In this document: piece by piece, positions 3,487-30,700 of the stretch
Layout of the letters: every line of letters begins with the position of its first letter
Numbering within the stretch: the stretch's first letter is position 1
Source of the DNA: a phage
Sequence record: PZ445539.1
DNA: 37,196 nt
Strand: one strand, 5' to 3'
Notes under the pieces: model-generated
Databases searched by the model: none
Told to the model about the DNA's origin: nothing
The model's input: only the letters and a program-made list of their open reading frames with translations
Made by a program: the position numbers and the translations under genes

Positions 3487-4644
3487 ATGTCTGAACTCGC
3501 TCTCATTCAAAAAGCTATCGAAGAGTCCCAGCAGAAAATGTCCCAGCTTTTCGATGCACAGAAAGCAGAAATCGAAAGCACGGGTAAGGTATCCAAACAG
3601 CTGCAGTCGGACCTTGCGAAAGTACAGGAAGAACTGACCAAATCCGGCACTCGCCTCTTCGATCTTGAGCAGAAACTGGCCTCCGGTGCCGAAAATCCGG
3701 GTGAGAAGAAATCCTTCTCCGAACGCGCAGCGGAAGAACTGCAGAAGTCCTGGAACGGCAGCAAAGGCAGCTTCGAGGCGAAAACCTTTAACAAGTCGCT
3801 GGGCAGTGATTCTGATTCTGCAGGCAGCCTGATCCAGCCGATGCAGGTTCCAGGCATCATCATGCCGGGCCTGCGCCGTCTGACCATTCGTGATCTGCTG
3901 GCGCAGGGCCGAATTTCCAGTAACTCCCTGGAATACGTCCGTGAAGAGGTGTTTACCAATAACGCCGATGTGGTGGCCGAGAAAGCGCTGAAACCTGAAT
4001 CGGATATTACCTTCAGCAAGCAAACCGCGAACGTGAAGACCATCGCCCACTGGGTGCAGGCGTCACGTCAGGTTATGGACGATGCGCCAATGCTGCAGTC
4101 ATACGTCAACAACCGCCTCATGTACGGTCTGGCGCTGAAGGAAGAAGGCCAGCTGCTGAACGGCGACGGTACCGGGGATAACCTGGAAGGTCTGAACAAA
4201 GTGGCAACCGCCTACGACACCTCGCTGAATGCCACTGGCGACACCCGCGCTGACATTATCGCTCACGCCATTTATCAGGTGACCGAATCTGAGTTTAGCG
4301 CTTCCGGTATCGTCCTGAACCCGCGCGACTGGCACAACATTGCGCTGCTGAAAGACAATGAAGGCCGTTATATTTTCGGCGGCCCTCAGGCGTTTACCAG
4401 CAACATCATGTGGGGGCTGCCGGTAGTTCCGACTAAGGCACAGGCCGCCGGTACCTTTACGGTGGGCGGTTTCGATATGGCCTCTCAGGTGTGGGATCGC
4501 ATGGATGCCACCGTGGAAGTCAGCCGTGAAGACCGCGATAACTTCGTGAAAAACATGCTGACCATCCTGTGCGAAGAGCGCCTGGCGCTGGCGCACTATC
4601 GCCCGACGGCAATCATCAAGGGCAGTTTCTCTTCTGGCTCATGA
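3487..4644 (+). CDS. major capsid protein, HK97 fold, with N-terminal delta (scaffold) domain
   Basis: 385-aa ORF; N-terminus MSELALIQKAIEESQQKM... and overall sequence closely match my recollection of HK97 gp5; coiled-coil N-terminal region. Confidence 0.93.
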   Translation: MSELALIQKAIEESQQKMSQLFDAQKAEIESTGKVSKQLQSDLAKVQEELTKSGTRLFDLEQKLASGAENPGEKKSFSERAAEELQKSWNGSKGSFEAKTFNKSLGSDSDSAGSLIQPMQVPGIIMPGLRRLTIRDLLAQGRISSNSLEYVREEVFTNNADVVAEKALKPESDITFSKQTANVKTIAHWVQASRQVMDDAPMLQSYVNNRLMYGLALKEEGQLLNGDGTGDNLEGLNKVATAYDTSLNATGDTRADIIAHAIYQVTESEFSASGIVLNPRDWHNIALLKDNEGRYIFGGPQAFTSNIMWGLPVVPTKAQAAGTFTVGGFDMASQVWDRMDATVEVSREDRDNFVKNMLTILCEERLALAHYRPTAIIKGSFSSGS

Positions 4645-4650
4645 TGGAGG

Positions 4651-4672
4651 GGGCGGGGTGACCCGCCCTTTT
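4651..4672 (+). terminator. intrinsic terminator-like hairpin after the capsid gene
   Basis: GGGCGGG-gtga-CCCGCCC stem-loop followed by TTTT. Confidence 0.55.
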
Positions 4673-4677
4673 AACGT

Positions 4678-5004
4678 ATGGCGATAGATGTTCTGGATGT
4701 AATTGGCCTCAGCCTGTTTAAGCAGCAGATTGAATTTGAGGAAGACGACAGGGACGAGCTGATCACCCTGTACGCTCAGGCAGCTTTTGACTACTGCATA
4801 AGCTGGTGCGATGAACCAGCTTGGAAAGTTGCAGCTGATATTCCTGCAGCCGTTAAGGGCGCCGTTCTCCTTGTCTTTGCTGACATGTTTGAACACCGCA
4901 CCGCGCAAAGCGAAGTACAGCTATATGAGAACGCTGCAGCAGAACGCATGATGTTCATCCATCGCAACTGGCGCGGTAAATCTGAACCTGAGGAGGGCTC
5001 CTGA
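4678..5004 (+). CDS. head-tail connector protein (gp6-like DNA-packaging/connector)
   Basis: 108-aa acidic ORF immediately after the capsid gene; position-based call. Confidence 0.55.
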   Translation: MAIDVLDVIGLSLFKQQIEFEEDDRDELITLYAQAAFDYCISWCDEPAWKVAADIPAAVKGAVLLVFADMFEHRTAQSEVQLYENAAAERMMFIHRNWRGKSEPEEGS

Positions 5005-5342
5005 TGGAACCTGGACGATTCAGGCACAGGGTAAAAATTCTCACCTTCACGACTTCGCGCGATCCATCTGGTCAGCCGGTTGAATCGTGGAGTGGTGGCA
5101 ACCCGGTCCCGGCTGAGGTGAAGGGGATCAGTGGCAGAGAGCAGATGTCTGGTGGCGCGGAAACGGCGCAGGCAACCATTCGCGTCTGGATGCGCTTCAG
5201 GGCTGAGCTGAACGCCTCTTCTCGTCTGGAAGTGCTTAGCGGCCCGTATAAAGGTCAGGTGCTAAATATCATCGGTCCTCCTGTAGCAAATGCGACCGGC
5301 AGTCGTCTGGAAATTCTTTGCAAAACGGGAGCTGAAAAATGA
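5004..5342 (+). CDS. head closure / head-tail adaptor protein
   Basis: 112-aa ORF with start overlapping the previous stop; position in head-tail joining block. Confidence 0.55.
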   Translation: MEPGRFRHRVKILTFTTSRDPSGQPVESWSGGNPVPAEVKGISGREQMSGGAETAQATIRVWMRFRAELNASSRLEVLSGPYKGQVLNIIGPPVANATGSRLEILCKTGAEK

Positions 5343-5788
5343 TTGAGACGAGCCTCGATTTTTCCGGGTTAAATGACATTGCAAAGGATCTGGAAGCGCT
5401 TAGCCGCGCTGAAAACAACAAGGTTCTGCGTGATGCCACGCGCGCCGGTGCCGAAGTGCTTAAGGAAGAAGTGATCGCCCGCGCTCCGGTGCGTACCGGG
5501 AAACTGAAAAAAAACGTGGTGGTGGTTACCCAAAAAAGCCGACGCCGCGGGGAAATTTCTTCTGGTGTCCACATTCGTGGTGTTAACCCGCGCACCGGGA
5601 ACAGCGATAACACGATGAAGGCGAATAACCCGAGAAATGCCTTTTACTGGCGATTCGTTGAAATTGGAACCGTTAACATGCCACCGCACCCTTTCATTCG
5701 TCCCGCGTTCGATGTTCGCCAGGAGCAGGCGACGGAGGTTGCGATCAGGCGCATGAACCAGGCCATTGACGAGGCATTAAGCAAATGA
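5339..5788 (+). CDS. HK97 gp10-like tail component
   Basis: 149-aa ORF, overlapping start and stop codons with neighbours; position-based call. Confidence 0.5.
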   Translation: MIETSLDFSGLNDIAKDLEALSRAENNKVLRDATRAGAEVLKEEVIARAPVRTGKLKKNVVVVTQKSRRRGEISSGVHIRGVNPRTGNSDNTMKANNPRNAFYWRFVEIGTVNMPPHPFIRPAFDVRQEQATEVAIRRMNQAIDEALSK

Positions 5789-6132
5789 CGGAAGAAGATC
5801 TCTATCCTCTGCTGGCGCCGCTGGCCGGAGGGCAGGTTTATCCCTACGTTGCGCCGCTCGGCAGTGACGGGAAGCCTTCAGTCTCGCCGCCCTGGGTAAT
5901 TTTCTCGATTATTACCGACGTGGCCGCAGACGTTCTTTGCGGTCAGGCTGAATCTGCCGTTTCTGTGCAGGTTGATGTCTATTCCAGCACCATCGCTGAA
6001 GCGCGCACGATCAGGAATATGGCGCTTGATGCTCTGCAGGTGCTGAAGCCGGAAAGCATTGTGAAAACGCCGGGCTATGAGCCTGATTTGCGCTATCACC
6101 GGGCAACGCTCGAATTTCAGGTAACCGTTTAA
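5785..6132 (+). CDS. tail completion / tail terminator protein
   Basis: 115-aa ORF immediately upstream of the major tail gene. Confidence 0.45.
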   Translation: MTEEDLYPLLAPLAGGQVYPYVAPLGSDGKPSVSPPWVIFSIITDVAADVLCGQAESAVSVQVDVYSSTIAEARTIRNMALDALQVLKPESIVKTPGYEPDLRYHRATLEFQVTV

Positions 6133-6148
6133 CCTTACCCACCATAAC

Positions 6149-6173
6149 AGACCGCCCCGGCGGTCTTTTTTTA
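6149..6173 (+). terminator. terminator-like hairpin upstream of major tail gene
   Basis: AGACCGC-cccg-GCGGTCT stem-loop followed by TTTTTTT. Confidence 0.55.
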
Positions 6174-6185
6174 TCTGGAGAAACC

Positions 6186-6656
6186 ATGACCAGTAAGTAT
6201 GAAGTTACAAAGGGGATGACCTTTGCCGTCTCCGACGCACCGGTAACCGCTGAGGATTTTAACGCCTCAGGTTTCCCGGGGGCTGGCATTACCTGGCTGG
6301 AAGCGGCCTGTGCAACAAAGGAGATCACCTTCACCGGCGGGCAGAAAGGGGATATCGACGTAACCACGCTTTGCTCAACTGAACAGGAGCAAACCAACGG
6401 CCTCGCCGCGCCAGCTGAAATGAGCATTACCCGTAACTGGGTTGGCGATGAAGCAGCACAGGAGGCACTGCAGACCGCTTACGAAAATGACGAACTGCGC
6501 GCGCTGCGTGTGGTGTTCCCGTCTGGTAATGGTTTCTACGTGCTGGTGGAGGTACGCCAGAGCTCATGGTCTGCTGCAACATCTTCCGTTGTTGGCGCTA
6601 CCTATTCTCTGCGTGTACGCGGCAAACCTAAACGCATCTACGCGTCTGGTTCCTGA
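6186..6656 (+). CDS. major tail (tube) protein
   Basis: 156-aa ORF with GGAG ribosome-binding site, bracketed by hairpins, directly upstream of the G/GT chaperone pair. Confidence 0.7.
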   Translation: MTSKYEVTKGMTFAVSDAPVTAEDFNASGFPGAGITWLEAACATKEITFTGGQKGDIDVTTLCSTEQEQTNGLAAPAEMSITRNWVGDEAAQEALQTAYENDELRALRVVFPSGNGFYVLVEVRQSSWSAATSSVVGATYSLRVRGKPKRIYASGS

Positions 6657-16900: not shown

Positions 16901-17496
16901 GCCTGCAGACGGACGTCAACGGCAACAAGGCATCCATCAACAGCCTGAATCAGACGTTCTCCGACTATCAGCAGGCTACGGCCACGCAGATAAACGGCAT
17001 TACGGCGACCGTTAACGGGCATACCTCAGCCATCACCACTAACGCTCAGGCGATAGCCAACGTTAATGGCGACCTCAGCGCGATGTACAACATCAAGGTT
17101 GGTGTCTCCAGCAACGGGCAGTATTACGCCGCGGGGATGGGTATCGGCGTGGAGAATACGCCATCCGGCATGCAGTCGCAGGTTATCTTCCTGGCTGACC
17201 GCTTCGCCGTCACCACCGCAGCCGGAAATAGCGTGGCTTTGCCGTTTGTGATCCAGAACGGGCAGACATTCATCCGGGCCAGCTTCATCCAGGACGGCAC
17301 CATTGAGAACGCCAAAATCGGAAACTATATCCAGTCGAATAACTATGTGGCTGGTTCTGCAGGCTGGAAGCTTGATAAGGGAGGGACGTTCGAAATTAAC
17401 GGCGTGGCCGGGGGCGGGAGGATGCTGATATCCAGCACTCTCATTCGCATCTACGACAGCAACAACGTGCTGCGCGTCAGAATGGGGTTATGGTAA
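13960..17496 (+). CDS. central tail fibre / host specificity protein (lambda gpJ-like)
   Basis: 1178-aa ORF at the canonical position after I. Confidence 0.9.
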   Translation: MATDKVLKGRKGGSSSSRTPTEQPDDLQSVAKAKILVALGEGEFAGQLTGKDIYLDGTALENADGSQNFSGVTWEFRAGTQAQKYIQGIPGTENEISVGTEVSSATAWTRTFTNTQLSAVRLRLKWPSLFKQEDDGDLVGYSVNYAIDLQTDGGTWQTVLNTSVTGKTTSGYERSHRIDLPQAGSTWTIRLRKITSDANSAKIGDTMTLQSFTEVIDAKLRYPNTALLYIEFDSSQFNGSIPQISCEPRGRVIRVPDTYDPETRTYSGTWTGAFKWAWTDNPAWIFYDLVVSDRFGLGHRLTAANIDKWTLYQVAQYCDQMVPDGKGGNGTEPRYTCNVYIQDRNDAYTVLRDFAAIFRGMTYWGGDQIVALADMPRDVDYSYTRANVVGGRFTYSSSTTKSRYTTALVSWSDPGNAYADAMEPVFEQALVARYGFNQLEMTAIGCTRQSEANRKGRWGILTNNKDRVVSFDVGLDGNIPQPGYIIAVADELLSGKVMGGRISAVNGRVIKLDRVADAAAGDRLILNLPSGVSQSRTIQAVNGESVTVTTAYSETPQAEAVWVVESDELYAQQYRVISVSEKDDGTFSITGAWHDPDKYARIDTGAIIDQRPVSVIPPGNQSPPANIVISSFSVVQQNISVETMRVSWDQAQNAIAYEAQWRRNDGNWVNVPRSSTTSFDVPGIYAGRYLVRVRAINAAEISSGWGYSEEKTLTGKVGNPPKPVGFIASENVVFGIELNWGFPANTDDTLKTEIQYSLTGTEDDAMLLADVPYPQRKYQQMGLKAGQIFWYRAQLVDRSGNESGYTEWVRGQASIDVSDITDVILEEIKDSDTFKDLIENAVDSNEKIAGMADDIKQANDELELQAQEIAKNAQDIGEVQTSVNELSSTVGDVSSSLSELEQTVATADTALGQRIDSISVSMDGMTGGVKNSAIAIIQNGLAQVATRKSLSASVAGNSAQLDRIDEVIVNEKEATARSLLSLQTDVNGNKASINSLNQTFSDYQQATATQINGITATVNGHTSAITTNAQAIANVNGDLSAMYNIKVGVSSNGQYYAAGMGIGVENTPSGMQSQVIFLADRFAVTTAAGNSVALPFVIQNGQTFIRASFIQDGTIENAKIGNYIQSNNYVAGSAGWKLDKGGTFEINGVAGGGRMLISSTLIRIYDSNNVLRVRMGLW

Positions 17497-17792
17497 TGCC
17501 ACAGGGTTTGCAGTGTTGGGATAGTGCAGGGCGGGTAGCAGTGGATTTAAGCGATTACGCGATTCGTTACATGGGCAGCGCAACGGTTTCGCTTGCTTCA
17601 GGAGAGACGTCAAAAAATGTCGCTTTTTCTGGCGCAACGCAGGACGGGACGTTTGTCACAATCGTTTCAACTGGCGTGACTGTAAACGAGTATTTTTGCC
17701 GCGCTTATAACGGCGGCTTTACTCTCTACTATCTCCCCACGGGTGGAAGTGCCGCAATCACTCTCAATGTTGAGGTTTATAACTTTCAATGA
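17490..17792 (+). CDS. hypothetical protein, tail-distal region
   Basis: 100-aa ORF overlapping the J stop; no recognisable motif. Confidence 0.4.
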   Translation: MVMPQGLQCWDSAGRVAVDLSDYAIRYMGSATVSLASGETSKNVAFSGATQDGTFVTIVSTGVTVNEYFCRAYNGGFTLYYLPTGGSAAITLNVEVYNFQ

Positions 17793-18430
17793 GCGGATTC
17801 GAAGTTTACAACAGCGACGGAAAACTGCTGGTGGATTCACAAAACAGATCGACCCTGTTTTATGATAAGCGCACGCTGGGTGCCGTCACCGATAAAGGCG
17901 CCTACCGTGTTAACAGCCCGTTTGGTGATGGCAGTACGCTCGGCTTTACGCAGCAGTCATTCTGGAATGACGGCCGTTTAAGGTGGCTGCAGCTGGGCAC
18001 AAACAAATACGGTTTTCCTGGTGCTGATATGCTTGAAGATAATGCTGGTAGCATGATCCGAACTGCGCGAAATATTGGCTTGCAGAGTGGTTATCTCGAT
18101 GTGTTTGATAGTGCCGGCAGCCTTATCTGGAGCGCTGCATCAGCCTCTAAGATGCCGAGAGTCGTTGGGTTCTTTGACGTACCAGCTAACTATGACCTGC
18201 AGAACAATACCTTTTCAGTCAGTTTAAGCTTTAACCCCTGGATTCTGGTAAACAACTGCCCTGGAAACCTTAGCGATGATGGTACGGTTGTCGGGTATTC
18301 AGGTGTGGTGCTCAAATGGACTGGCTCTCAGCTGCAGGGCAGATACATTTCAAATAACCAGCGCAGCTGGAGCCAGACGTTTCAGGGGCGGGGCCTACGA
18401 ATCCCCATCGCTCAGTTTGTTGGAATTTGA
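17789..18430 (+). CDS. hypothetical protein, possibly tail-associated
   Basis: 213-aa ORF with start overlapping the previous stop; no signal peptide. Confidence 0.45.
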   Translation: MSGFEVYNSDGKLLVDSQNRSTLFYDKRTLGAVTDKGAYRVNSPFGDGSTLGFTQQSFWNDGRLRWLQLGTNKYGFPGADMLEDNAGSMIRTARNIGLQSGYLDVFDSAGSLIWSAASASKMPRVVGFFDVPANYDLQNNTFSVSLSFNPWILVNNCPGNLSDDGTVVGYSGVVLKWTGSQLQGRYISNNQRSWSQTFQGRGLRIPIAQFVGI

Positions 18431-18757
18431 CACGGGAGGAACGCGTGGATAATGAGTCGCGATCATATCTTGTTTCACGCCCTTTGCTGAATTAAAGCGA
18501 TAAACCACATCCAGCTTATCCGTTTTTTTATAGCAAATATTACTTAACCGTTTATTAATATGGCGGCTGAATATTCCGTTGCTACTGTCTGAAATAATAT
18601 CCACCTCTCTGGTGGCGCAGTCGATATTTACGTGAATATCACCACCCAGCGATAAACGAGCGGCATCAACCGGGTAATCCATCTGGAATGCGTTATCTGT
18701 GTGTGTGTTCGTACATCCAGCCACCAGAAAAAGCGCTGCAGCAAATAAAAGTTTCAT
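18395..18757 (-). CDS. lipoprotein, unknown function (antisense moron)
   Basis: Signal peptide with classic lipobox LVAGC; AT-rich; convergent with the upstream tail gene. Confidence 0.6.
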   Translation of the reverse strand: MKLLFAAALFLVAGCTNTHTDNAFQMDYPVDAARLSLGGDIHVNIDCATREVDIISDSSNGIFSRHINKRLSNICYKKTDKLDVVYRFNSAKGVKQDMIATHYPRVPPVSNSNKLSDGDS

Positions 18758-18883
18758 TTCAACATTCCTGTTTATGCGGGAACTTCCATTTTATTTGAGT
18801 TTAAAAAATAGTCAGATTGATATGAGCGATCAATTTTACACGATTGATCGCTTTTAACGATCGTTATTATCGTGAGGTAGTTC

Positions 18884-20269
18884 ATGCTTTATAACACCGG
18901 CACCATCGCTATTAACGGAAATACCGCAACCGGCACCGGCACAAACTGGACGGCACCCGCCAGCCAGGTTCGCGCTGGCCAGACGATTATTGTCATGTCT
19001 AACCCGGTTCAGATGTTCCAGATTTCATCCGTGAACAGCGCCACGTCAATGACGGTAACGCCTGCTGCATCACCGGCGCTGAGCGGCCAGAAGTATGGAA
19101 TTCTTGTGTCGGACAATATTTCGGTCGACGGACTGGCGCAGGCCATGTCTCAGCTCATCAAAGAGTATGACGAGAATATCGGTGCATGGGAGACGTTCGC
19201 TACTACCTCAGCGAACCAGATTATCACTGTAACCATCAACGGTACCTCCGTGAATATTCCGGGTATTGGTGGCCTGGCTCGAAAAGGGGCAAACAGCGAT
19301 ATCACGGAGCTGAAAGGGCTCACTACTGCGCTTTCTATTGCGCAGGGCGGGACCGGGGCAACGAACGCTGCAGACGCTCGCTCAGGTCTAGGATTTACAA
19401 ATGGCGTAGTACCAGTATCTCTTGGCGGCACCGGCGCAACGAATGCTGCCGACGCTCGCTCAAACCTCGTTTTGGGAAGTAGTGCTACCAGGGACGCATA
19501 TAGCTCTTCTGGCAAAATGTTGTCAGAAGGAGATTTTGGGTTAGGCGGGGCGGCGTCAACCAACGGAAATGAGCAGGCATGCGGATTTTACAGAGCAGTT
19601 GCTGGTGCCAGCGGAAACCCATTAAGTAATTCAGGCGTCATACTCAACCACCAGGTCTACGGCGCTAATGCATTCACAAGAATTGCCACTTCCTATGAGC
19701 TACCTGTTCCCAGGATTTTTGTATCAACAAAGGTGAACTCTACCTATTACCCATACTATGAATTTTACACTACAGGTAACACTACTAAGGCCAGCGATGG
19801 GACACTTAAGGCCGCATCACCGGTCGCTCGCATTGTTACATCACAGGAGGAATGTCAGCGCGCGGATATCGACGAACCTGGCTTTATTTGGTGCGGCTGC
19901 GGAACGGCGAACGCCGAGGCCGAAGGAATAACTCTTTCTCGTCTCGAAGCGGGAGTTTACGTGCTGACCGGTTCTGCAGGGCTGGCATCGGAAGGCTGGA
20001 AGTTGCTGCCGCCAATGGACCCAGGTGGAATGGGAGAACTGGGCGTTGTTGAGGCAGAGCAAAACGACAATGGCGAGCTGACAATCCGCCTGTTCAAGAG
20101 CAAATACATGTTGAGCGATGAAGGTGAGATCATCAAAACCAAAGGTGAACTGATGGATGTCCCGGCAAACAGTTGGATCGATGTTCGCCTGGATATGCCA
20201 GAGAGCAGCATTTGGAATCATCGCCAGAAAGAAGCCATGGAACAAGCGGATAATAATTCTGGTTCTTAA
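18884..20269 (+). CDS. side tail fibre protein with tail-fibre repeats
   Basis: 461-aa ORF; tandem GGTGATNAADARS.LG repeats typical of phage tail fibre repeat motif; GAGG ribosome-binding site. Confidence 0.8.
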   Translation: MLYNTGTIAINGNTATGTGTNWTAPASQVRAGQTIIVMSNPVQMFQISSVNSATSMTVTPAASPALSGQKYGILVSDNISVDGLAQAMSQLIKEYDENIGAWETFATTSANQIITVTINGTSVNIPGIGGLARKGANSDITELKGLTTALSIAQGGTGATNAADARSGLGFTNGVVPVSLGGTGATNAADARSNLVLGSSATRDAYSSSGKMLSEGDFGLGGAASTNGNEQACGFYRAVAGASGNPLSNSGVILNHQVYGANAFTRIATSYELPVPRIFVSTKVNSTYYPYYEFYTTGNTTKASDGTLKAASPVARIVTSQEECQRADIDEPGFIWCGCGTANAEAEGITLSRLEAGVYVLTGSAGLASEGWKLLPPMDPGGMGELGVVEAEQNDNGELTIRLFKSKYMLSDEGEIIKTKGELMDVPANSWIDVRLDMPESSIWNHRQKEAMEQADNNSGS

Positions 20270-20278
20270 TTAAACATA

Positions 20279-20308
20279 GGCAGTCACGTAATTAATGACT
20301 GCCTTTTT
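20279..20308 (+). terminator. intrinsic terminator after tail fibre gene
   Basis: GGCAGTCA-cgtaattaa-TGACTGCC hairpin followed by TTTTT. Confidence 0.6.
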
Positions 20309-20309
20309 G

Positions 20310-20576
20310 TCACGCACCAACCTGGCGAACAGTCGGGAACTCAGAAACCAACCACATATCAGATTCTTCAAACATTTCCTCCAGCATACGGTTCAGTTTT
20401 TCCCGATCGCTTTTGCTGGCATCGCTATTCAGGCCGTTTTCCTGCATCGGCTTCACTTTCACCTCGGCATCAGGGAAAATCTGGTGCACTCGCTTCGTCA
20501 GCTCTGCCAGGATAATTTCTCTGGCGCCTGCCAAACCATCAACATTCCGCTTGTCATAAACCAGTTCAACGAACAT
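20310..20576 (-). CDS. DinI-like protein
   Basis: 88-aa acidic protein whose sequence pattern resembles DinI; GGAGG ribosome-binding site; two LexA boxes immediately upstream. Confidence 0.75.
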   Translation of the reverse strand: MFVELVYDKRNVDGLAGAREIILAELTKRVHQIFPDAEVKVKPMQENGLNSDASKSDREKLNRMLEEMFEESDMWLVSEFPTVRQVGA

Positions 20577-20595
20577 ATAAGCCTCCGGAAAACCA

Positions 20596-20635
20596 CTGTG
20601 TTTGTATACAGTATTTTTACTGTAAAAATAAACAG
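20596..20635. promoter_or_regulatory. two tandem LexA (SOS) boxes in the DinI-like promoter
   Basis: CTGT-N8-ACAG at 20596-20611 (aCTGTgtttgtatACAGta) and 20620-20635 (taCTGTaaaaataaACAGta). Confidence 0.7.
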
Positions 20636-20730
20636 TATCAAGGTGAGCGGAGCGCGAAAAGTGGAAGGGTTTTTGTTACCCTTAGTTACAAATAGAAAAA
20701 CCCCGGACCGTAAGATCTGGGGTTCTTTTA

Positions 20731-20757
20731 AAGTGCACGTGCATTTCACGTGCATAT
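20731..20757. promoter_or_regulatory. candidate integrase arm-type binding sites (left arm of attP)
   Basis: Repeated GTGCA(C/T) motif: AAGTGCACGTGCATTTCACGTGCATAT. Confidence 0.35.
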
Positions 20758-20847
20758 TTTTGTCTTTTCTCGGTCTGCGCACTGTCTGGTCAGTGTCCGT
20801 AAGTGGCTGTTTTTATTGCCGCTGTCCGGTTGCAGTCCTATCAAAAG

Positions 20848-20882
20848 TGGTGGAGCTGGCGGGAGTTGAACCCGTGTCCGAA
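20848..20882 (-). mobile_element. ssrA: attP core: 3'-terminal fragment of ssrA (tmRNA) carried by the phage
   Basis: Reverse complement reads GGACACGGGTTCAACTCCCGCCAGCTCCACCA, matching from memory the T-arm/acceptor 3' end of enterobacterial tmRNA; identity stops abruptly upstream; integrase gene adjacent. Confidence 0.7.
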
Positions 20883-20932
20883 TAATGATTAACCTATTGA
20901 ATATTAATGATTTCTGTTTTTTGAAATGCCTC

Positions 20933-21006: not shown

Positions 21007-22254
21007 CTACTGAACTGCAGAAATGGCGGTTTTTCCGTCGTATTCAGCCAGATATCTACCGTAATTGCGGAACAGCATTTCCGGCCCTTTATGCCCCATC
21101 TGCCCGGCAAGCCAGAAAAGGTTTACGCCTTGGCTAATGTGTCTGGTGGCGAATGTGTGGCGGGTCTGGTACGGGTTACGGTATCGAACGCCAGCTTTTC
21201 TGAGTGTTGGCACCCATGCTTTTTTTCGTATTGCGTCGGCGTTCGCCCAAGGCTCACCCGTTTTAGGATCGCTGAAAATAAACTCACTTTTCATGAACGT
21301 GAATTGTTTCTGCGCCTGCAGCGCGGCCAGCGCCTCGCTGTTTAATTCTACTTTACGGGTACCGGCTTTTGTTTTGGTACCTTTAAGAACGCCAACCACA
21401 CTCGCCGCCTGAACGTGAGCTGTTTTAGCGATATTGTCGAGGTCGGGCCAGCGTAACGCACACAGCTCAGAGCTGCGTAAACCTGTATTGAATGCGAAAC
21501 GGAACAGGTTTTCCCATTCCTGATATCTGCAGCTCTGGTAAATAGCGCTGATTTCCGCTGGTGTGAACGGATCAACTTCGTAATCGTCAATATTCGGGCT
21601 GCTGTCGATCACGTGGTACCGACTCGCGCTGACAAGGGTTACCGGGTTGATTGTCAGCAGGCCGTCAGTCACCGCTTCATCTATGGCGCTGCGCAGAAAC
21701 GAGAGGTTATTCCTGATCGTTTTCAGCTTTGTTTTTCTGCTGGCGATCCAGTTTTTGAGGACCGCAGGGGTCAGTTCCGACACATGCATTTTGTGCAGCG
21801 CAGATAGCGCAGACAGGCACTTTTCATAACCGCCAATAGTGGAGGGCGAAAGGTTGCGGTTCTGGCAGATTTTCAGATACTCGTCCAGGTAGGACTTAAT
21901 ATTTTTGGTTTTCTTCACTACCCCGAACAGCTCCAGTTTTTTGGAGGTGGGGAAGTATTTCGCATAATCGAATGTGCCGCCGGCGATCTGGTTCTGTATC
22001 TCCCCCAGCAGGCGCTCGGCATACTTCACGCCGCGCGCGTTTGCTTCCATTCTGGAAAGGGGCTCCCGGCAGAGAACCCCTTTGTAGGTGAATGTGATCA
22101 CCAGGGTATCGCCAGTTTTATGCTGGCGAATGGTTACTCCTCTTGGGAGAGATAATGATCCTTGTTCTTTCTTGCCCACTTTGAAACCTCCGTTAAGTCT
22201 ATCCAGCGTTCTTTGACGCCATCGACTTTTAATACATGAACACCCTCTTTCCAT
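21007..22254 (-). CDS. int: tyrosine integrase (start codon uncertain, probably downstream of 22254)
   Basis: C-terminal catalytic region with conserved R..H..R..Y pattern (HTFATRHISQG...RNYGRY); adjacent to attP. Confidence 0.9.
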   Translation of the reverse strand: MERGCSCIKSRWRQRTLDRLNGGFKVGKKEQGSLSLPRGVTIRQHKTGDTLVITFTYKGVLCREPLSRMEANARGVKYAERLLGEIQNQIAGGTFDYAKYFPTSKKLELFGVVKKTKNIKSYLDEYLKICQNRNLSPSTIGGYEKCLSALSALHKMHVSELTPAVLKNWIASRKTKLKTIRNNLSFLRSAIDEAVTDGLLTINPVTLVSASRYHVIDSSPNIDDYEVDPFTPAEISAIYQSCRYQEWENLFRFAFNTGLRSSELCALRWPDLDNIAKTAHVQAASVVGVLKGTKTKAGTRKVELNSEALAALQAQKQFTFMKSEFIFSDPKTGEPWANADAIRKKAWVPTLRKAGVRYRNPYQTRHTFATRHISQGVNLFWLAGQMGHKGPEMLFRNYGRYLAEYDGKTAISAVQ

Positions 22255-24283: not shown

Positions 24284-24676
24284 TCATACGAAGCGCCTCA
24301 CCGCCAAAGAAGCGACTACCCGACCGTGAATTTTGATATCTTTCAATTCATCAGTGTTGAGGGTGAATGTTTCGTAATGATGGTTGTCAGAAATAATTTT
24401 CAACGAACCACAAATTAATGGCTCTATTCTCTTAATGAACAGGCATGGGCGGCCGAAAACCTCCATCGTATAAACGTAAATGCCAGGAGTGAGCGCACGG
24501 CCACCGCAATCAACGAACGCCACAACCTCACATGGTTCGATGGTCGGTTGCATTGAATCACCTTCCATCCGGCAGCTCTGAACGCGGTTACCAAAGTCGT
24601 TAATATTGTCTGAACCGAACAGCATTCGAGGAGTTTTTATTGGCTGATTAATCGCGATAGCATTTTGCATTTTCAT
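24284..24676 (-). CDS. stand-alone S24-family peptidase-like protein (LexA/UmuD C-terminal domain type)
   Basis: GDSMQPTI serine motif and downstream FIKRI lysine in correct order; 130 aa with no HTH; GAGGAA ribosome-binding site. Confidence 0.6.
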   Translation of the reverse strand: MKMQNAIAINQPIKTPRMLFGSDNINDFGNRVQSCRMEGDSMQPTIEPCEVVAFVDCGGRALTPGIYVYTMEVFGRPCLFIKRIEPLICGSLKIISDNHHYETFTLNTDELKDIKIHGRVVASLAVRRFV

Positions 24677-24736
24677 TTCCTCAGGGTGAGTTTGGCCCCA
24701 CCAAGAAAGGTGTTAATTAAACAATGTTAATTAATT

Positions 24737-25168
24737 TTAAATCTTGTCTGCTTGCTTACAGATGGTTTCTTGCAAGTCATCTAATTTTTCATAAACGATA
24801 GTTAGAGTACCGATAGCCGACAATTCAGGAGGCATACAATCCATAGCGTTGGATAAAGCCATTCTGCAATTGCCAATATCCGCAGACCATGAATTAAGTT
24901 GATTGGAAGTTATAATGCTTGTTGGCTCTGTAAATTCACCACACTGCTCGTTTCCTGAAATGAGCCACAGAACATCAGAATGAAGAATGTTAGCCAATTG
25001 GATTAACTGGTCAGCAAACGGAACAGTTTTCTCCGTTTCCCAGTTGTTAATGGTTTCGGTTGTTAAACCAAGATGATCAGCCAAAAAATCCTGAGACAGT
25101 CGAAGCGAAGATCTTTGATTTAATATTCTTTTGCCGATGGTTTTGGCTACGGTGATTTGAGTATTCAT
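24737..25168 (-). CDS. XRE-family helix-turn-helix transcriptional regulator
   Basis: N-terminal HTH pattern (LRLSQDFLADHLGLTTETINNWE); first gene after the OL-like palindrome; GGAG ribosome-binding site. Confidence 0.7.
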   Translation of the reverse strand: MNTQITVAKTIGKRILNQRSSLRLSQDFLADHLGLTTETINNWETEKTVPFADQLIQLANILHSDVLWLISGNEQCGEFTEPTSIITSNQLNSWSADIGNCRMALSNAMDCMPPELSAIGTLTIVYEKLDDLQETICKQADKI

Positions 25169-25370: not shown

Positions 25371-26069
25371 TTAGAGCCTATTGTAATTGATTGATTCATG
25401 CATTATGGCTTTACCCATCACGTAAAGGTCATCTTGGTTTTCTTCCGTGATATACCATTTCTCATATGCCGGATTATCCGATAAGACTGCTAGCCTGTTT
25501 CCCTGCATCTGGAGACGTTTTAGGTGAAATGTTTTACCAAAAACAAACACATACACACCATCCGTTAGAAAGTGTCGGACGGAAATGTCTACGAAGACAC
25601 GATCACCGGAATTAAATGTGCTGGCCATGCTGTCGCCATTGACGGTCATTACTTTTACGACATCTTCACTACGATTCCCGAAAAGGGATTTTGCATGTTG
25701 AGTCGTAAACTCAATAGCGTGTAAAACCTCCACATATTCTGAAAGCATGAACGTGCCAGGCCCTGCACTCACTGCAAGGTCAAGAACCTCGACCCTGAAT
25801 ATGCCAGCGTTATCCTTTACCTCCCTTTCGGGCATGGTCTCTATCACATAGCCCTGTCTATGAGGCACATGATTTTTTCCAGTTGATAGCCATTCAGGGC
25901 TCACACCCAGCGCATTAGCAATCTCAACCAACTTACGTGTTGTGTTGGTTTTGCCTGCAACAAGACGCCAGATAGCTGGTTGCGAAACCCCAACTTTCAT
26001 CGCTAATTCTGCCTGCGTAAGGCCTGCGTCAACCATCGCTTTTTGAAGACGATCTGAGAATGTGTTCAT
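25371..26069 (-). CDS. cI: CI-like repressor (HTH plus S24 autopeptidase domain)
   Basis: Start placed at internal Met (MNTFSDRL...) to clear the operator region; N-terminal HTH; C-terminal S24 domain with GDSM serine and later KRLQ lysine; divergent from cro. Confidence 0.85.
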   Translation of the reverse strand: MNTFSDRLQKAMVDAGLTQAELAMKVGVSQPAIWRLVAGKTNTTRKLVEIANALGVSPEWLSTGKNHVPHRQGYVIETMPEREVKDNAGIFRVEVLDLAVSAGPGTFMLSEYVEVLHAIEFTTQHAKSLFGNRSEDVVKVMTVNGDSMASTFNSGDRVFVDISVRHFLTDGVYVFVFGKTFHLKRLQMQGNRLAVLSDNPAYEKWYITEENQDDLYVMGKAIMHESINYNRL

Positions 26070-26083
26070 ACCAATAAGCCTAT

Positions 26084-26170
26084 ACAAAAAGTTATTAAGT
26101 GGCAAATACGATAAGTTATTGCATAAAGTTATTCAAGGCTATACTCTTTCCCTATGTTCAATAACTTTTG
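26084..26170. promoter_or_regulatory. OR-like operator/promoter region between cI and cro
   Basis: Four copies of core AAGTTATT/AATAACTT (26089, 26113, 26126, inverted at 26160), one forming ..AAGTTATTGCA matching the OL palindrome half-site. Confidence 0.5.
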
Positions 26171-29609: not shown

Positions 29610-29921
29610 ATGGATCGCCTAATTAGAGAAATGTCGTACCTCTTTACCAAGCAGCATTTTATGGAGCTTCAGGAAACGGCCAAAAACATCGCAATCAGCC
29701 ATAGTGACTTTCCTGAGTGTTTCAGTCTTATTGCTGAGGCCATCGCTGAATTTGTTGAAGACACTCCTGATGATGAGTGGCGAGAGTATGAAAAAATCCT
29801 CATGCACTACGTTGCTATGCGTACTCTGACGCTGTGGGGTAACGGCGATAAAGTTACTGATGTCCAGTGGGCACACCCTGGCTGGTTTGGCACTGCTGAG
29901 AAGGGAGAAACCATTCAATGA
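29610..29921 (+). CDS. hypothetical protein
   Basis: 104 aa; translationally coupled between primase-helicase and Q-like gene. Confidence 0.45.
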   Translation: MDRLIREMSYLFTKQHFMELQETAKNIAISHSDFPECFSLIAEAIAEFVEDTPDDEWREYEKILMHYVAMRTLTLWGNGDKVTDVQWAHPGWFGTAEKGETIQ

Positions 29922-30700
29922 AACTGGAAGCATCACTCAAACATTTTAGTCCTCAGGGAATGCACATCAGCGATGACGTGAAGGGAACTTCTCCGGACCG
30001 CCTTACAGGAACAGATGTAATGGCGGCGATTGGCACCACCAGCAGCCGTGCGCGCTTCGGCCTGGCGGCGTTCTTCGGTAAAGCGGGAATCAGCAAAACG
30101 GATGAACAGCTCGCAGTTCAGGCGCTGGCGCGATATGCGATGGATGTCGCACCGAAGAATGTTCGCAAAGCAGCTGGTGGGCAGTTCGGATGGTGTATGC
30201 AGATGCTGGCACAATTTGCCTTTGCTGATTACTCCCGTTCGGCGGCTACCAGCGTGACATGTCACAGTTGCAGCGGTACCGGGTTTATCTCCGGGAATGA
30301 GGATGTGGTTAAACATCCTGGTATTTTCGACGCCGACGGTGCTGAAGTGGTGGCCCCGAAGATTAAAAATGAGCTGGTGAATAGGGTTTGCGGAACATGC
30401 GGAGGAAAGAAAGTGATCCTTGCCCGGTGCAGGTGTGGCGGTAAAGGCGAAGTGTTGGACCGCAAAGCGACTAAAGACCGCGGCGCACCGGTTTTCAAAA
30501 CGTGTGAACGTTGCTCTGGTAATGGCTTCTCTGCTATCTCCTCGGCGACGGTACACCGTGCCATTTTGAAGCGTCTCCCGGACCTCCATCAATCCTCATG
30601 GTCACGCAACTGGAAACCCTTCTATGAAATGCTGGTGGACACTCTGCGCCAGGGGGAACGTCATGCAGCAGTGGAATTTGAGAAGGCGACAACTTATTAA
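29918..30700 (+). CDS. putative late-gene antiterminator (Q-like), Cys-rich zinc-finger protein
   Basis: Four CxxC pairs, two as CxxCxGxG (CHSCSGTG, CERCSGNG); immediately upstream of a strong promoter-terminator pair and the late/lysis genes. Confidence 0.5.
   Translation: MKLEASLKHFSPQGMHISDDVKGTSPDRLTGTDVMAAIGTTSSRARFGLAAFFGKAGISKTDEQLAVQALARYAMDVAPKNVRKAAGGQFGWCMQMLAQFAFADYSRSAATSVTCHSCSGTGFISGNEDVVKHPGIFDADGAEVVAPKIKNELVNRVCGTCGGKKVILARCRCGGKGEVLDRKATKDRGAPVFKTCERCSGNGFSAISSATVHRAILKRLPDLHQSSWSRNWKPFYEMLVDTLRQGERHAAVEFEKATTY

Follow-up and report, generated by a model that had tools for sequence, protein, structure and literature searches.

We analysed a 37,196-nucleotide stretch of phage DNA (record PZ445539.1; hereafter the window), which is the genome of the lambdoid Escherichia phage LMessi (PP925823.1, reverse complement, 100% identity). 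On its minus strand, it holds a gene, here called sip, for a 120-residue lipoprotein that is homologous to SIP-1 of the virulent phage IsaakIselin. Our overall reading, to which we assign a probability of about 0.6, is that this protein is an exclusion lipoprotein that mimics TonB on the transporter PqqU and that its expression is under phase-variable control by OxyR and Dam. The fully specified version falls a little short of an even chance: a PqqU-plugging TonB mimic under an agn43/gtr-type Dam/OxyR switch, by which clonal lysogens split heritably into PqqU-blocking cells (phage-resistant, without high-affinity pyrroloquinoline quinone (PQQ) uptake) and PqqU-open cells. The features discussed are listed in Table 1.

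The lipoprotein and the adjoining receptor-binding genes

The first-pass annotation had placed an antisense gene between the J-distal genes and the side tail fibre gene, and this gene is real. It is flanked by the fibre gene on one side and, on the other, by two small plus-strand genes that lie 3′ of a J-like gene of 1178 codons. The locus is also present in HK639 (the nearest relative of LMessi), CharmingMan, Eeyore, LLS and Flotzy (81–98% DNA identity), and the open reading frame (ORF) keeps its position in all six sequenced phages, with 80–98% amino acid identity. A search of 5.8 billion proteins returned relatives in 52 protein clusters, none of them named, from Enterobacter, Escherichia, Kosakonia, Klebsiella and Franconibacter. 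We collected 90 more sip loci from genomes and viral contigs; all conservation counts below refer to 76 distinct related loci, whose sequences are phylogenetically non-independent, unless another number is given. The major-allele frequencies at the first, second and third codon positions of sip were 0.92, 0.97 and 0.72, respectively, a pattern that reads as the signature of a coding sequence under purifying selection. Carriage in E. coli is rare, with 3 of 5426 complete genomes having the gene at a coverage of at least 80%.

The gene is missed in some records. That of HK639 annotates a 52-residue ORF on the opposite strand instead (HK639_26; 5400–5558), and PGAP leaves sip unannotated in E. 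coli F467 (1149–1460 of the retrieved locus). Pfam, NCBIfam and PADLOC gave no significant family for the lipoprotein, and PHROGs gave an uncharacterised family only. A profile search of 1.84 billion representatives found only 21 relatives, some of which are lipoproteins and some of which have ordinary signal peptides. Matches of 196–271 residues were considered as full TonB proteins and rejected; they combine an unrelated or mis-called N-terminal extension with the same small domain and have no TonB Pfam domains.

The N-terminus has the layout MK-LLFAAALFL-VAG-C, that is, a basic n-region, a hydrophobic h-region and a lipobox. The lipobox LVAGC proposed earlier conforms to the rule-based pattern [LVI][ASTVI][GAS]C by which we judged it, and Cys15 is retained in at least 90% of the aligned relatives, among which the n-region, the h-region and V-A-G-C are conserved. 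Position +2 is never occupied by Asp; among the relatives, the residues seen there are T, S, A, N, G, V and L. In E. coli, lipoproteins whose +2 residue is not Asp are delivered to the outer membrane by the Lol system. By this rule, the LMessi lipoprotein, with Thr at +2, is expected to be sorted to the outer membrane.

The core of the protein has the fold of the TonB C-terminal domain. Compared with that domain (E. coli TonB residues ~150–239; PDB 2grx, 1xx3 and 1u07), the LMessi protein lacks the inner-membrane anchor and the proline-rich spacer. Instead, it is a 120-residue lipoprotein in which the domain follows the signal directly, and it features a disulfide-capable pair of cysteines and an extra C-terminal tail. 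It is thus a homologue of the TonB domain, not a TonB energy transducer, and cannot transduce energy. The tail (residues 91–120; 18395–18487), predicted with low confidence, carries a motif, [AST]-x-Q-[PST]-x-R, that is kept even in distant relatives, and in which R105 is nearly invariant; TonB is without such a tail. It might contact the plug of PqqU.

PqqU, also named YncD, is the transporter of PQQ. It has been identified as the terminal receptor of IsaakIselin (PMC8594841). A structural modelling study (PMC12124388; Sci Adv 2025) assigned the IsaakIselin proteins QXV80560 and QXV80561, the receptor-binding proteins RBP-1 and RBP-2, to the outer side of PqqU and QXV80559 (SIP-1) to the periplasmic side; it noted the TonB-C-terminal fold of SIP-1 and, from modelling only, proposed it as a superinfection-exclusion factor. 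Over the core, the LMessi lipoprotein is 33% identical to SIP-1 (BLASTP, E 4e-15). The gene directly before sip encodes the RBP-1 homologue, a product of 213 residues, and the RBP-1/RBP-2 pair adjoins sip 3′ of the J-like gene in LMessi and in related prophages. By tblastn, sip homologues were matched in 37 records of T1-like phages; virulent T1-like phages, among them the BASEL phage IsaakIselin, carry both the 213-residue gene and the lipoprotein gene. A 2026 preprint sets a threshold of more than 30% identity for the YncD-specific RBP family; the accessory genes that it describes at this locus include a proven exclusion factor for LptD. In LMessi, the identities amount to 50% with RBP-1, 35% with RBP-2 and 33% with SIP-1. 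We conclude that LMessi carries the PqqU receptor module (RBP-2, RBP-1 and SIP), a three-gene set typical of phages with PqqU as receptor, and that the lipoprotein is its SIP. In one assembled contig (L158, 1986–3363), the lipoprotein–fibre gene pair is followed by capsid and prohead-protease genes, not by the RBP genes and J; this contig may represent a rearranged or misassembled prophage.

The LMessi protein and SIP-1 share the homologous core with its YP..A.R.S..G motif and two cysteines, the TonB-C-terminal fold, an N-terminal export signal and the linkage to RBP-1 and RBP-2 homologues. They differ as follows. SIP-1 has a signal for signal peptidase I (…NAMA|L) without a lipobox cysteine, whereas the LMessi version bears a lipobox. 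The SIP-1 gene lies in a virulent phage, runs in the same direction as the RBP genes and has no regulatory region of its own, whereas LMessi sip is inverted and has its own candidate promoter and an OxyR/Dam-type site. Lastly, the LMessi protein has the longer C-terminal tail, of 30 residues and with a conserved Q-P-x-R-like motif. A functional parallel is offered by Llp of T5 and Cor of phi80, HK022 and T1. These, too, are small lipoproteins of the outer membrane whose genes adjoin those for receptor binding, and they block the receptor of their own phage by attaching to FhuA, a TonB-dependent transporter, on its periplasmic side. The LMessi lipoprotein belongs neither to the sequence family nor to the fold of Llp/Cor and, since both fold and sequence differ, it would work like them without being one of them.

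From these comparisons, we infer that the LMessi lipoprotein would bind PqqU and act in exclusion. It would be a periplasmic lipoprotein, anchored in the outer membrane, whose core copies the TonB C-terminal domain. In the lysogen, it would most likely bind the periplasmic face of PqqU, perhaps via the TonB box as TonB does, and PqqU plugged in this way would be unusable as a receptor for other PqqU-dependent phages. In the temperate lineage, sip would have become inverted relative to the late operon and would have gained a lipid anchor and a promoter of its own. The earlier proposal of a lysogenic-conversion lipoprotein, possibly an exclusion or outer-membrane factor, is supported by the SIP-1 homology, the TonB-C-terminal fold, the lipobox and the absence of Asp at +2.

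A putative OxyR/Dam site between sip and the fibre gene

sip and the fibre gene diverge from a common intergenic region of 126 nt. A perfect 10-bp inverted repeat, AGCGATCAAT / ATTGATCGCT, had been noticed there. It is real and perfect, but the coordinates first given for it (18822–18831 / 18845–18854) must be shifted by +3 and −2, respectively: its arms lie at 18825–18834 and 18843–18852 and are separated by an 8-nt spacer. If 80% complementarity is allowed, the arms lengthen to 20 nt. No second perfect 10-bp inverted repeat with a loop of up to 20 nt occurs in the 37 kb, and first-order Markov shuffles contain 1.2 such repeats on average; thus, the repeat alone is unremarkable. What goes beyond chance in this region is its conservation and not the repeat as such: 57 of the 126 intergenic positions are invariant; among third codon positions, 6 of 109 are invariant for sip and 2 of 40 for the fibre gene. 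Within the arms, only the inner 8 bp (CGATCAAT / ATTGATCG) are fixed, and the outer 2 bp vary.

We scored candidate half-sites (HS1 and HS2; Table 1) against the OxyR dimer consensus ATAGxTxxxAxCTAT, a form that is said to go back to work of Toledano et al. in 1994. The consensus is also quoted, with a misprint, in PMC2909390. HS2 matches at 10 of 10 positions once the GATC variants ATCG and CGAT are allowed. With these variants counted as matches, the HS1/HS2 pair scores 19 of 20, which was reached in none of 200 shuffles, and the composite with three GATCs appeared in none of 2000, both statistics being optimistic because the patterns were framed post hoc. No other pair in the window scores 16 or more at a spacing of 31–33 nt. 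The repeat (18825..18852) resolves into the right end of HS1 plus CAAT, the 8-nt spacer, and ATTG plus the left end of HS2, and the flanks ATTGATCG...CGATCAAT bracket the half-sites of P22 gtr as well. Thus, to describe the element as a simple inverted repeat was too simple; judged from sequence, the repeat appears to be the abutting flanks of two OxyR-type half-sites with Dam sites rather than a stand-alone palindromic operator.

The pattern of variation follows the OxyR consensus. The 20 positions specified by it have a mean major-allele frequency of 0.986, with 14 of them invariant, whereas the 10 degenerate positions have a mean of 0.818, with one invariant (Mann–Whitney p = 6e-5). In HS1, the specified positions are conserved and the x positions vary; in HS2, each of the 10 specified positions reaches a conservation of at least 96% and each of the five x positions varies. 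The GATC sites start at 18828, 18846 and 18859, with spacings of 18 and 13 nt. All three are present in 75 of the 76 relatives, and the 18/13 spacing in 74. In the prophage of E. coli F467, whose SIP is 46% identical, the half-sites are ATTGTTTTAAACGAT and ATCGCCGTGAGCGAT and the GATC spacing is again 18/13; degenerate bases have been swapped and nearly all specified ones kept, with position 6 of HS2 lost. This conservation along the consensus is the strongest argument for a putative OxyR site.

As a bare cluster, the GATC triplet is not significant: a rough Poisson estimate predicts ~1.4 triplets within 35 nt in the window, where we saw one triplet within 60 nt or less. GATC-III is the centre of a perfect 12-bp palindrome, TAACGATCGTTA, at 18855–18866. 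Several relatives have a disrupted palindrome and a retained GATC-III (for instance GTCGATCATT and AACGATCTTT), which suggests that the GATC rather than the palindrome is under selection.

Two known switches were compared in detail. The regulatory region of agn43 (flu) in the CP4-44 prophage of E. coli K-12, AACGATCAATATCTATTTTATCGATCGTTTATATCGATCGATAAG, has GATCs 19 and 13 nt apart. Like the putative site of LMessi, it comprises a single OxyR tetramer site composed of two half-sites with three GATCs. The site overlaps or abuts the promoter, as that of LMessi would do with its candidate promoters. As in LMessi, the first half-site has GATC-I at its right end (A[A/G]CGATCAAT), and GATC-II and GATC-III form ATCG-N7-CGAT. 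HS1 has the layout of agn43 ATAGAATAAAACGAT, and HS2 aligns with agn43 ATCGTTTATATCGAT. The GATC spacing is 18/13 in LMessi versus 19/13 in agn43, with the distance between half-sites 1 nt shorter in LMessi; the agn43 site lies at and downstream of the −10 element and transcription start, whereas that of LMessi lies upstream of or over the −35 elements of the candidate promoters. The regulated genes are unrelated.

The other switch is that of the gtr operon of Salmonella phage P22. In gtr, pairs of GATCs 13 nt apart (−110/−97 and −46/−33) lie in OxyR half-sites (Broadbent et al. 2010, PMC2909390). We located the half-sites in the sequence as ATCGGTAACAACGAT, ATAGATAAAAACTAT and ATCGCTTGTATCGAT, each with ATTG…CAAT-like flanks. 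HS1 aligns with OxyR(B), ATAGATAAAAACTAT, and HS2 with OxyR(C), ATCGCTTGTATCGAT. Positions 18816–18862 match OxyR(B)-spacer-OxyR(C) at ~38 of 48 positions, and the local alignment score is 39 (44 with the family consensus) versus 16 ± 2.5 for shuffles. gtr, like sip in our reading, is a phage lysogenic-conversion locus between a tail gene and int, and concerns a cell-surface function of the lysogen. It has three half-sites and four GATCs, by which OxyR both activates (AB) and represses (BC), whereas LMessi has two half-sites and three GATCs, and the regulated genes lie on opposite sides of the site. At the sequence level, the LMessi site appears to conform to the Dam/OxyR switches of agn43, gtr, opvAB and Mu mom, save for the spacer that is shorter by 1 nt.

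Besides sip, LMessi encodes an integrase (21007–22254), a CI-like repressor (25371–26105) and a Q antiterminator (29918–30700), a temperate, lambdoid gene set that makes sip antisense to a Q-dependent late operon. The independent regulation proposed for it previously is supported by promoter-like elements of its own, found by a consensus scan and conserved among the relatives, and by the upstream regulatory site. In predicted promoter P1, the −35 element, which HS1 abuts, is invariant and the −10 element nearly so. HS1 overlaps the −35 element and spacer of predicted promoter P2. From P2, transcription would start near 18798. The G in GATC-I would then lie at about −33, where GATC4 has been reported in P22 gtr, and the OxyR site would span −63 to −18, a repressing geometry like those of agn43 and gtr(BC). 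For the fibre gene, the consensus scan gave no plus-strand promoter, and none is conserved between the site and the fibre start codon. Two plus-strand candidates, TTGATA-16-CACGAT and TTGATC-17-TATCGT, were rejected, for they use non-conserved bases or would start transcription downstream of the conserved Shine-Dalgarno sequence. As no conserved plus-strand promoter fits before the fibre start codon, the regulated gene is most likely sip. Folding of the candidate sip terminator region was not better than that of shuffles (z 0.13), and we hold this terminator with low confidence.

By analogy with agn43 and gtr, we infer that OxyR would bind this site, that one of the candidate promoters would be in use and that sip is probably phase-variable, with a sign of regulation modelled on these switches. 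A host OxyR site, made up of two dimer half-sites 31 nt apart and three Dam GATCs, would lie directly upstream of or overlap the sip promoter. Methylated GATCs would exclude OxyR, and sip would be transcribed; when the GATCs are unmethylated after replication, OxyR would bind, block Dam and hold the other state. A lysogen population would thus divide into ON and OFF cells that pass on their state, and PqqU function would be traded for phage exclusion.

Table 1. Features of the sip locus in the window (coordinates in nt; where no strand applies, the cell is left empty)
Feature	Position	Strand	Remarks
sip-like gene	18395..18757	−	ORF for a 120-residue lipoprotein, start MKLLFAAALFLVAGC; homologue of IsaakIselin SIP-1
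Lipoprotein signal peptide with lipobox L-V-A-G-C	18713..18757	−	read from sequence; Cys15 would be the lipidated residue, +2 is Thr
TonB-C-terminal-domain-like core, residues 28–90	18488..18676	−	YP..A.R.S..G motif; Cys 47 and 75; helix-strand-strand-helix-strand
sip Shine-Dalgarno sequence AGGA	18766..18769	−	8 nt from ATG; conserved
Candidate sip promoter P1	18788..18815	−	−35 CTGACT (18815..18810), 16-nt spacer, −10 TAAAAT (18793..18788); consensus scan
Alternative or tandem candidate sip promoter P2	18805..18833	−	−35 TTGATC (18833..18828, holds GATC-I), 17-nt spacer, −10 TATTTT (18810..18805); read from sequence
OxyR-type half-site HS1, ATTGATATGAGCGAT	18816..18830		8/10 to consensus; right end carries GATC-I (18828–18831)
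OxyR-type half-site HS2, ATCGCTTTTAACGAT	18847..18861		8/10 (strict); carries GATC-II (18846–18849) and GATC-III (18859–18862)
Weak candidate sip intrinsic terminator	18348..18370	−	pattern scan; lies antisense within the RBP-1 gene
RBP-2 homologue (QXV80561), PqqU/YncD receptor-binding module 3′ of J	17490..17792	+	phrog_7961; 35% identity, E 4e-16
RBP-1 homologue (QXV80560), main putative PqqU/YncD-binding protein	17789..18430	+	50% identity over full length, E 5e-72
Side tail fibre gene, 461 residues	18884–20269	+	Pfam Phage_tail_C_2, E 2e-29; phrog_1591

Weighing the proposed exclusion switch against other readings

Several points weigh against an exclusion lipoprotein under OxyR/Dam control. 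The scoring scheme and the spacing window were picked after the sequence had been seen. The half-sites are 31 nt apart from start to start in 75 of the 76 relatives (35 in one), as against 32 in agn43 and gtr, and position 3 of HS1 is T, not A or C. Between the half-sites, TTTAC (within TTTTAC, 18834–18839) is invariant or nearly so, which OxyR contacts do not explain; P22 gtr has a similar TTATAC at the same place between OxyR(B) and OxyR(C). From predicted P1, with a start near 18781, the OxyR site would span −80 to −35, an activating geometry. The likeness to gtr could reflect inherited sequence and not kept function, although the conservation pattern argues otherwise. For the protein, the binding of SIP-1 to PqqU in the literature is an AlphaFold2 model only. 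Finally, a second class of prophages, Franconibacter, one metagenomic contig and the virulent T1-like phages all lack the OxyR/Dam-type site. Since these sip lineages do without it, the site is not needed for the function of the protein and is an add-on of one temperate clade. The second-class prophages (L059, L064 and similar ones) encode a lipoprotein sub-family with the N-terminus MKTRLLLTAITFFMFGC and have a different fibre gene; their intergenic region has no GATC and, in place of the OxyR-type site, features a GC-rich hairpin and then a T-run.

Some of these points would fit a reading that leaves the role of the protein unchanged and takes the repeat and the GATC cluster as ordinary promoter elements or as the operator of another symmetric regulator, of host or phage origin, the likeness to gtr and agn43 being inherited or due to AT-richness. 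Besides the 31-nt spacing and the invariant TTTAC, it can draw on the TTGATC in each arm, a −35-like hexamer facing outwards on each strand, and on the threefold occurrence of TTGAT/ATCAA motifs. We consider it unlikely, because the positions that vary are precisely those left degenerate in the OxyR consensus, the composite is absent from the shuffles and the architecture survives in the much diverged F467 locus. The half-site motif GCGATCAAT argues against a set of phage operators, as it turns up elsewhere in the window no more often than chance predicts. A phage-repressor operator was rejected on this ground, the sole other exact copy being intragenic, in a coding region. FNR-type sites have the spacing TTGAT-N4-ATCAA; here, TTGAT and ATCAA are present at spacings of N7 and N10, and FNR/CRP was dropped. 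This and the following comparisons with consensus sequences were made by eye. A Fur box (13/19 match around GATAATAACGATCGTTAAA), LacI-family palindromes (TAACGATCGTTA), ArcA, CpxR, lambda CII repeats and LexA misfit in spacing and leave the variable positions unexplained. Weak BLAST matches of the intergenic block at other E. coli loci (H98 and H100) lie in unrelated contexts and were also set aside.

A second alternative concerns the protein. A TonB mimic might serve another end: it could keep progeny from adsorbing to debris, modulate PqqU during DNA entry, block colicins that depend on TonB, or be a fitness factor that alters the PQQ or iron physiology of the host. The TonB-like fold predicts general binding to TonB boxes without specificity for PqqU, and Llp of T5 is also credited with protecting progeny. 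A non-exclusion role seems improbable to us all the same: sip is strictly linked to a PqqU-type RBP pair in temperate and virulent phages alike, the published complex model puts SIP-1 on PqqU, and the receptor-specific accessory genes at this locus that have been studied are exclusion factors (directed at FhuA in the case of Llp/Cor and at LptD in that of the Rtp accessory protein).

We give slightly less credence still to an RNA hairpin, either in the plus-strand late transcript before the fibre gene (as a weak terminator, processing signal or translational element) or in the sip leader. The plus-strand RNA of 18790–18900 folds with −29.1 kcal/mol (z −3.7), a long hairpin (18815–18862) is followed by UUUU, a pattern scan flagged terminator-like sites, and 91.8% of the hairpin cells are still paired among 45 distinct sequences. 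Pairing is, however, kept mainly by invariance (covariation 0.075 versus 0.068 in shuffles, of which 42 of 500 reach the observed value; double changes in 6 cells only), variation affects the outer stem pairs and spares the 5′ half of the loop, which is the opposite of what a hairpin predicts, Rfam gave no match, and, with P1 as with P2, the predicted sip transcript begins downstream of the repeat.

If the preferred reading, a PqqU-directed exclusion lipoprotein under OxyR/Dam control, is true, the TonB-mimic exclusion factor, so far modelled for one virulent phage only, would extend to a widespread clade of temperate Enterobacteriaceae phages. In this clade, SIP would be a lipoprotein and the product of an independently expressed lysogenic-conversion gene, one that several database records miss, and LMessi and HK639-like lambdoid phages would be predicted to use PqqU/YncD as receptor. 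Full-text literature searches returned no report of a Dam/OxyR switch on an exclusion lipoprotein, nor of sip in temperate phages. sip would thus add a new case of Dam/OxyR phase variation, which toggles a protein that is at once phage receptor and cofactor transporter and so hedges bets between nutrient uptake and phage resistance, and it would be the first phase-variable exclusion factor known for a protein receptor. The OxyR/Dam cassette would be a mobile regulatory module that, at the tail-fibre/int junction in lambdoid phages, moves between lysogenic-conversion genes unrelated to one another. The reading would also matter for proposals to target PqqU in phage therapy.

Neighbouring genes in LMessi and its relatives

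sip and the convergent RBP-1 gene overlap at their 3′ ends by 36 nt (18395–18430) on opposite strands. This overlap is kept in close relatives, whereas in the prophage of E. coli F467 a gap of 12 nt separates the two genes.

On the far side of the fibre gene lies a DinI-family gene (20310–20576, minus strand; Pfam DinI, E 2.5e-22), with a terminator-like hairpin directly downstream (20304..20278). It is a second antisense gene of lysogenic-conversion type that adjoins the fibre gene. The GenBank record of LMessi has an overlapping plus-strand ‘hypothetical protein’ of 196 residues (20295–20885) where Flotzy and CharmingMan annotate DinI, and this plus-strand entry is probably a mis-annotation.

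Next to the full-length CI-like repressor gene, the region 24284–25168 (minus strand) holds a CI-type helix-turn-helix (HTH) domain (24737–25168) and a Peptidase_S24 domain (24284–24676) on separate, adjacent ORFs, which could represent a split or second LexA/CI-like regulator. In phage LLS, the region 4077–6643, downstream of the sip–fibre junction, contains a fibre-tip segment that is invertible, with inverted repeats annotated, and a Fin serine invertase. LLS would thus have a switch by DNA inversion next to an epigenetic one.

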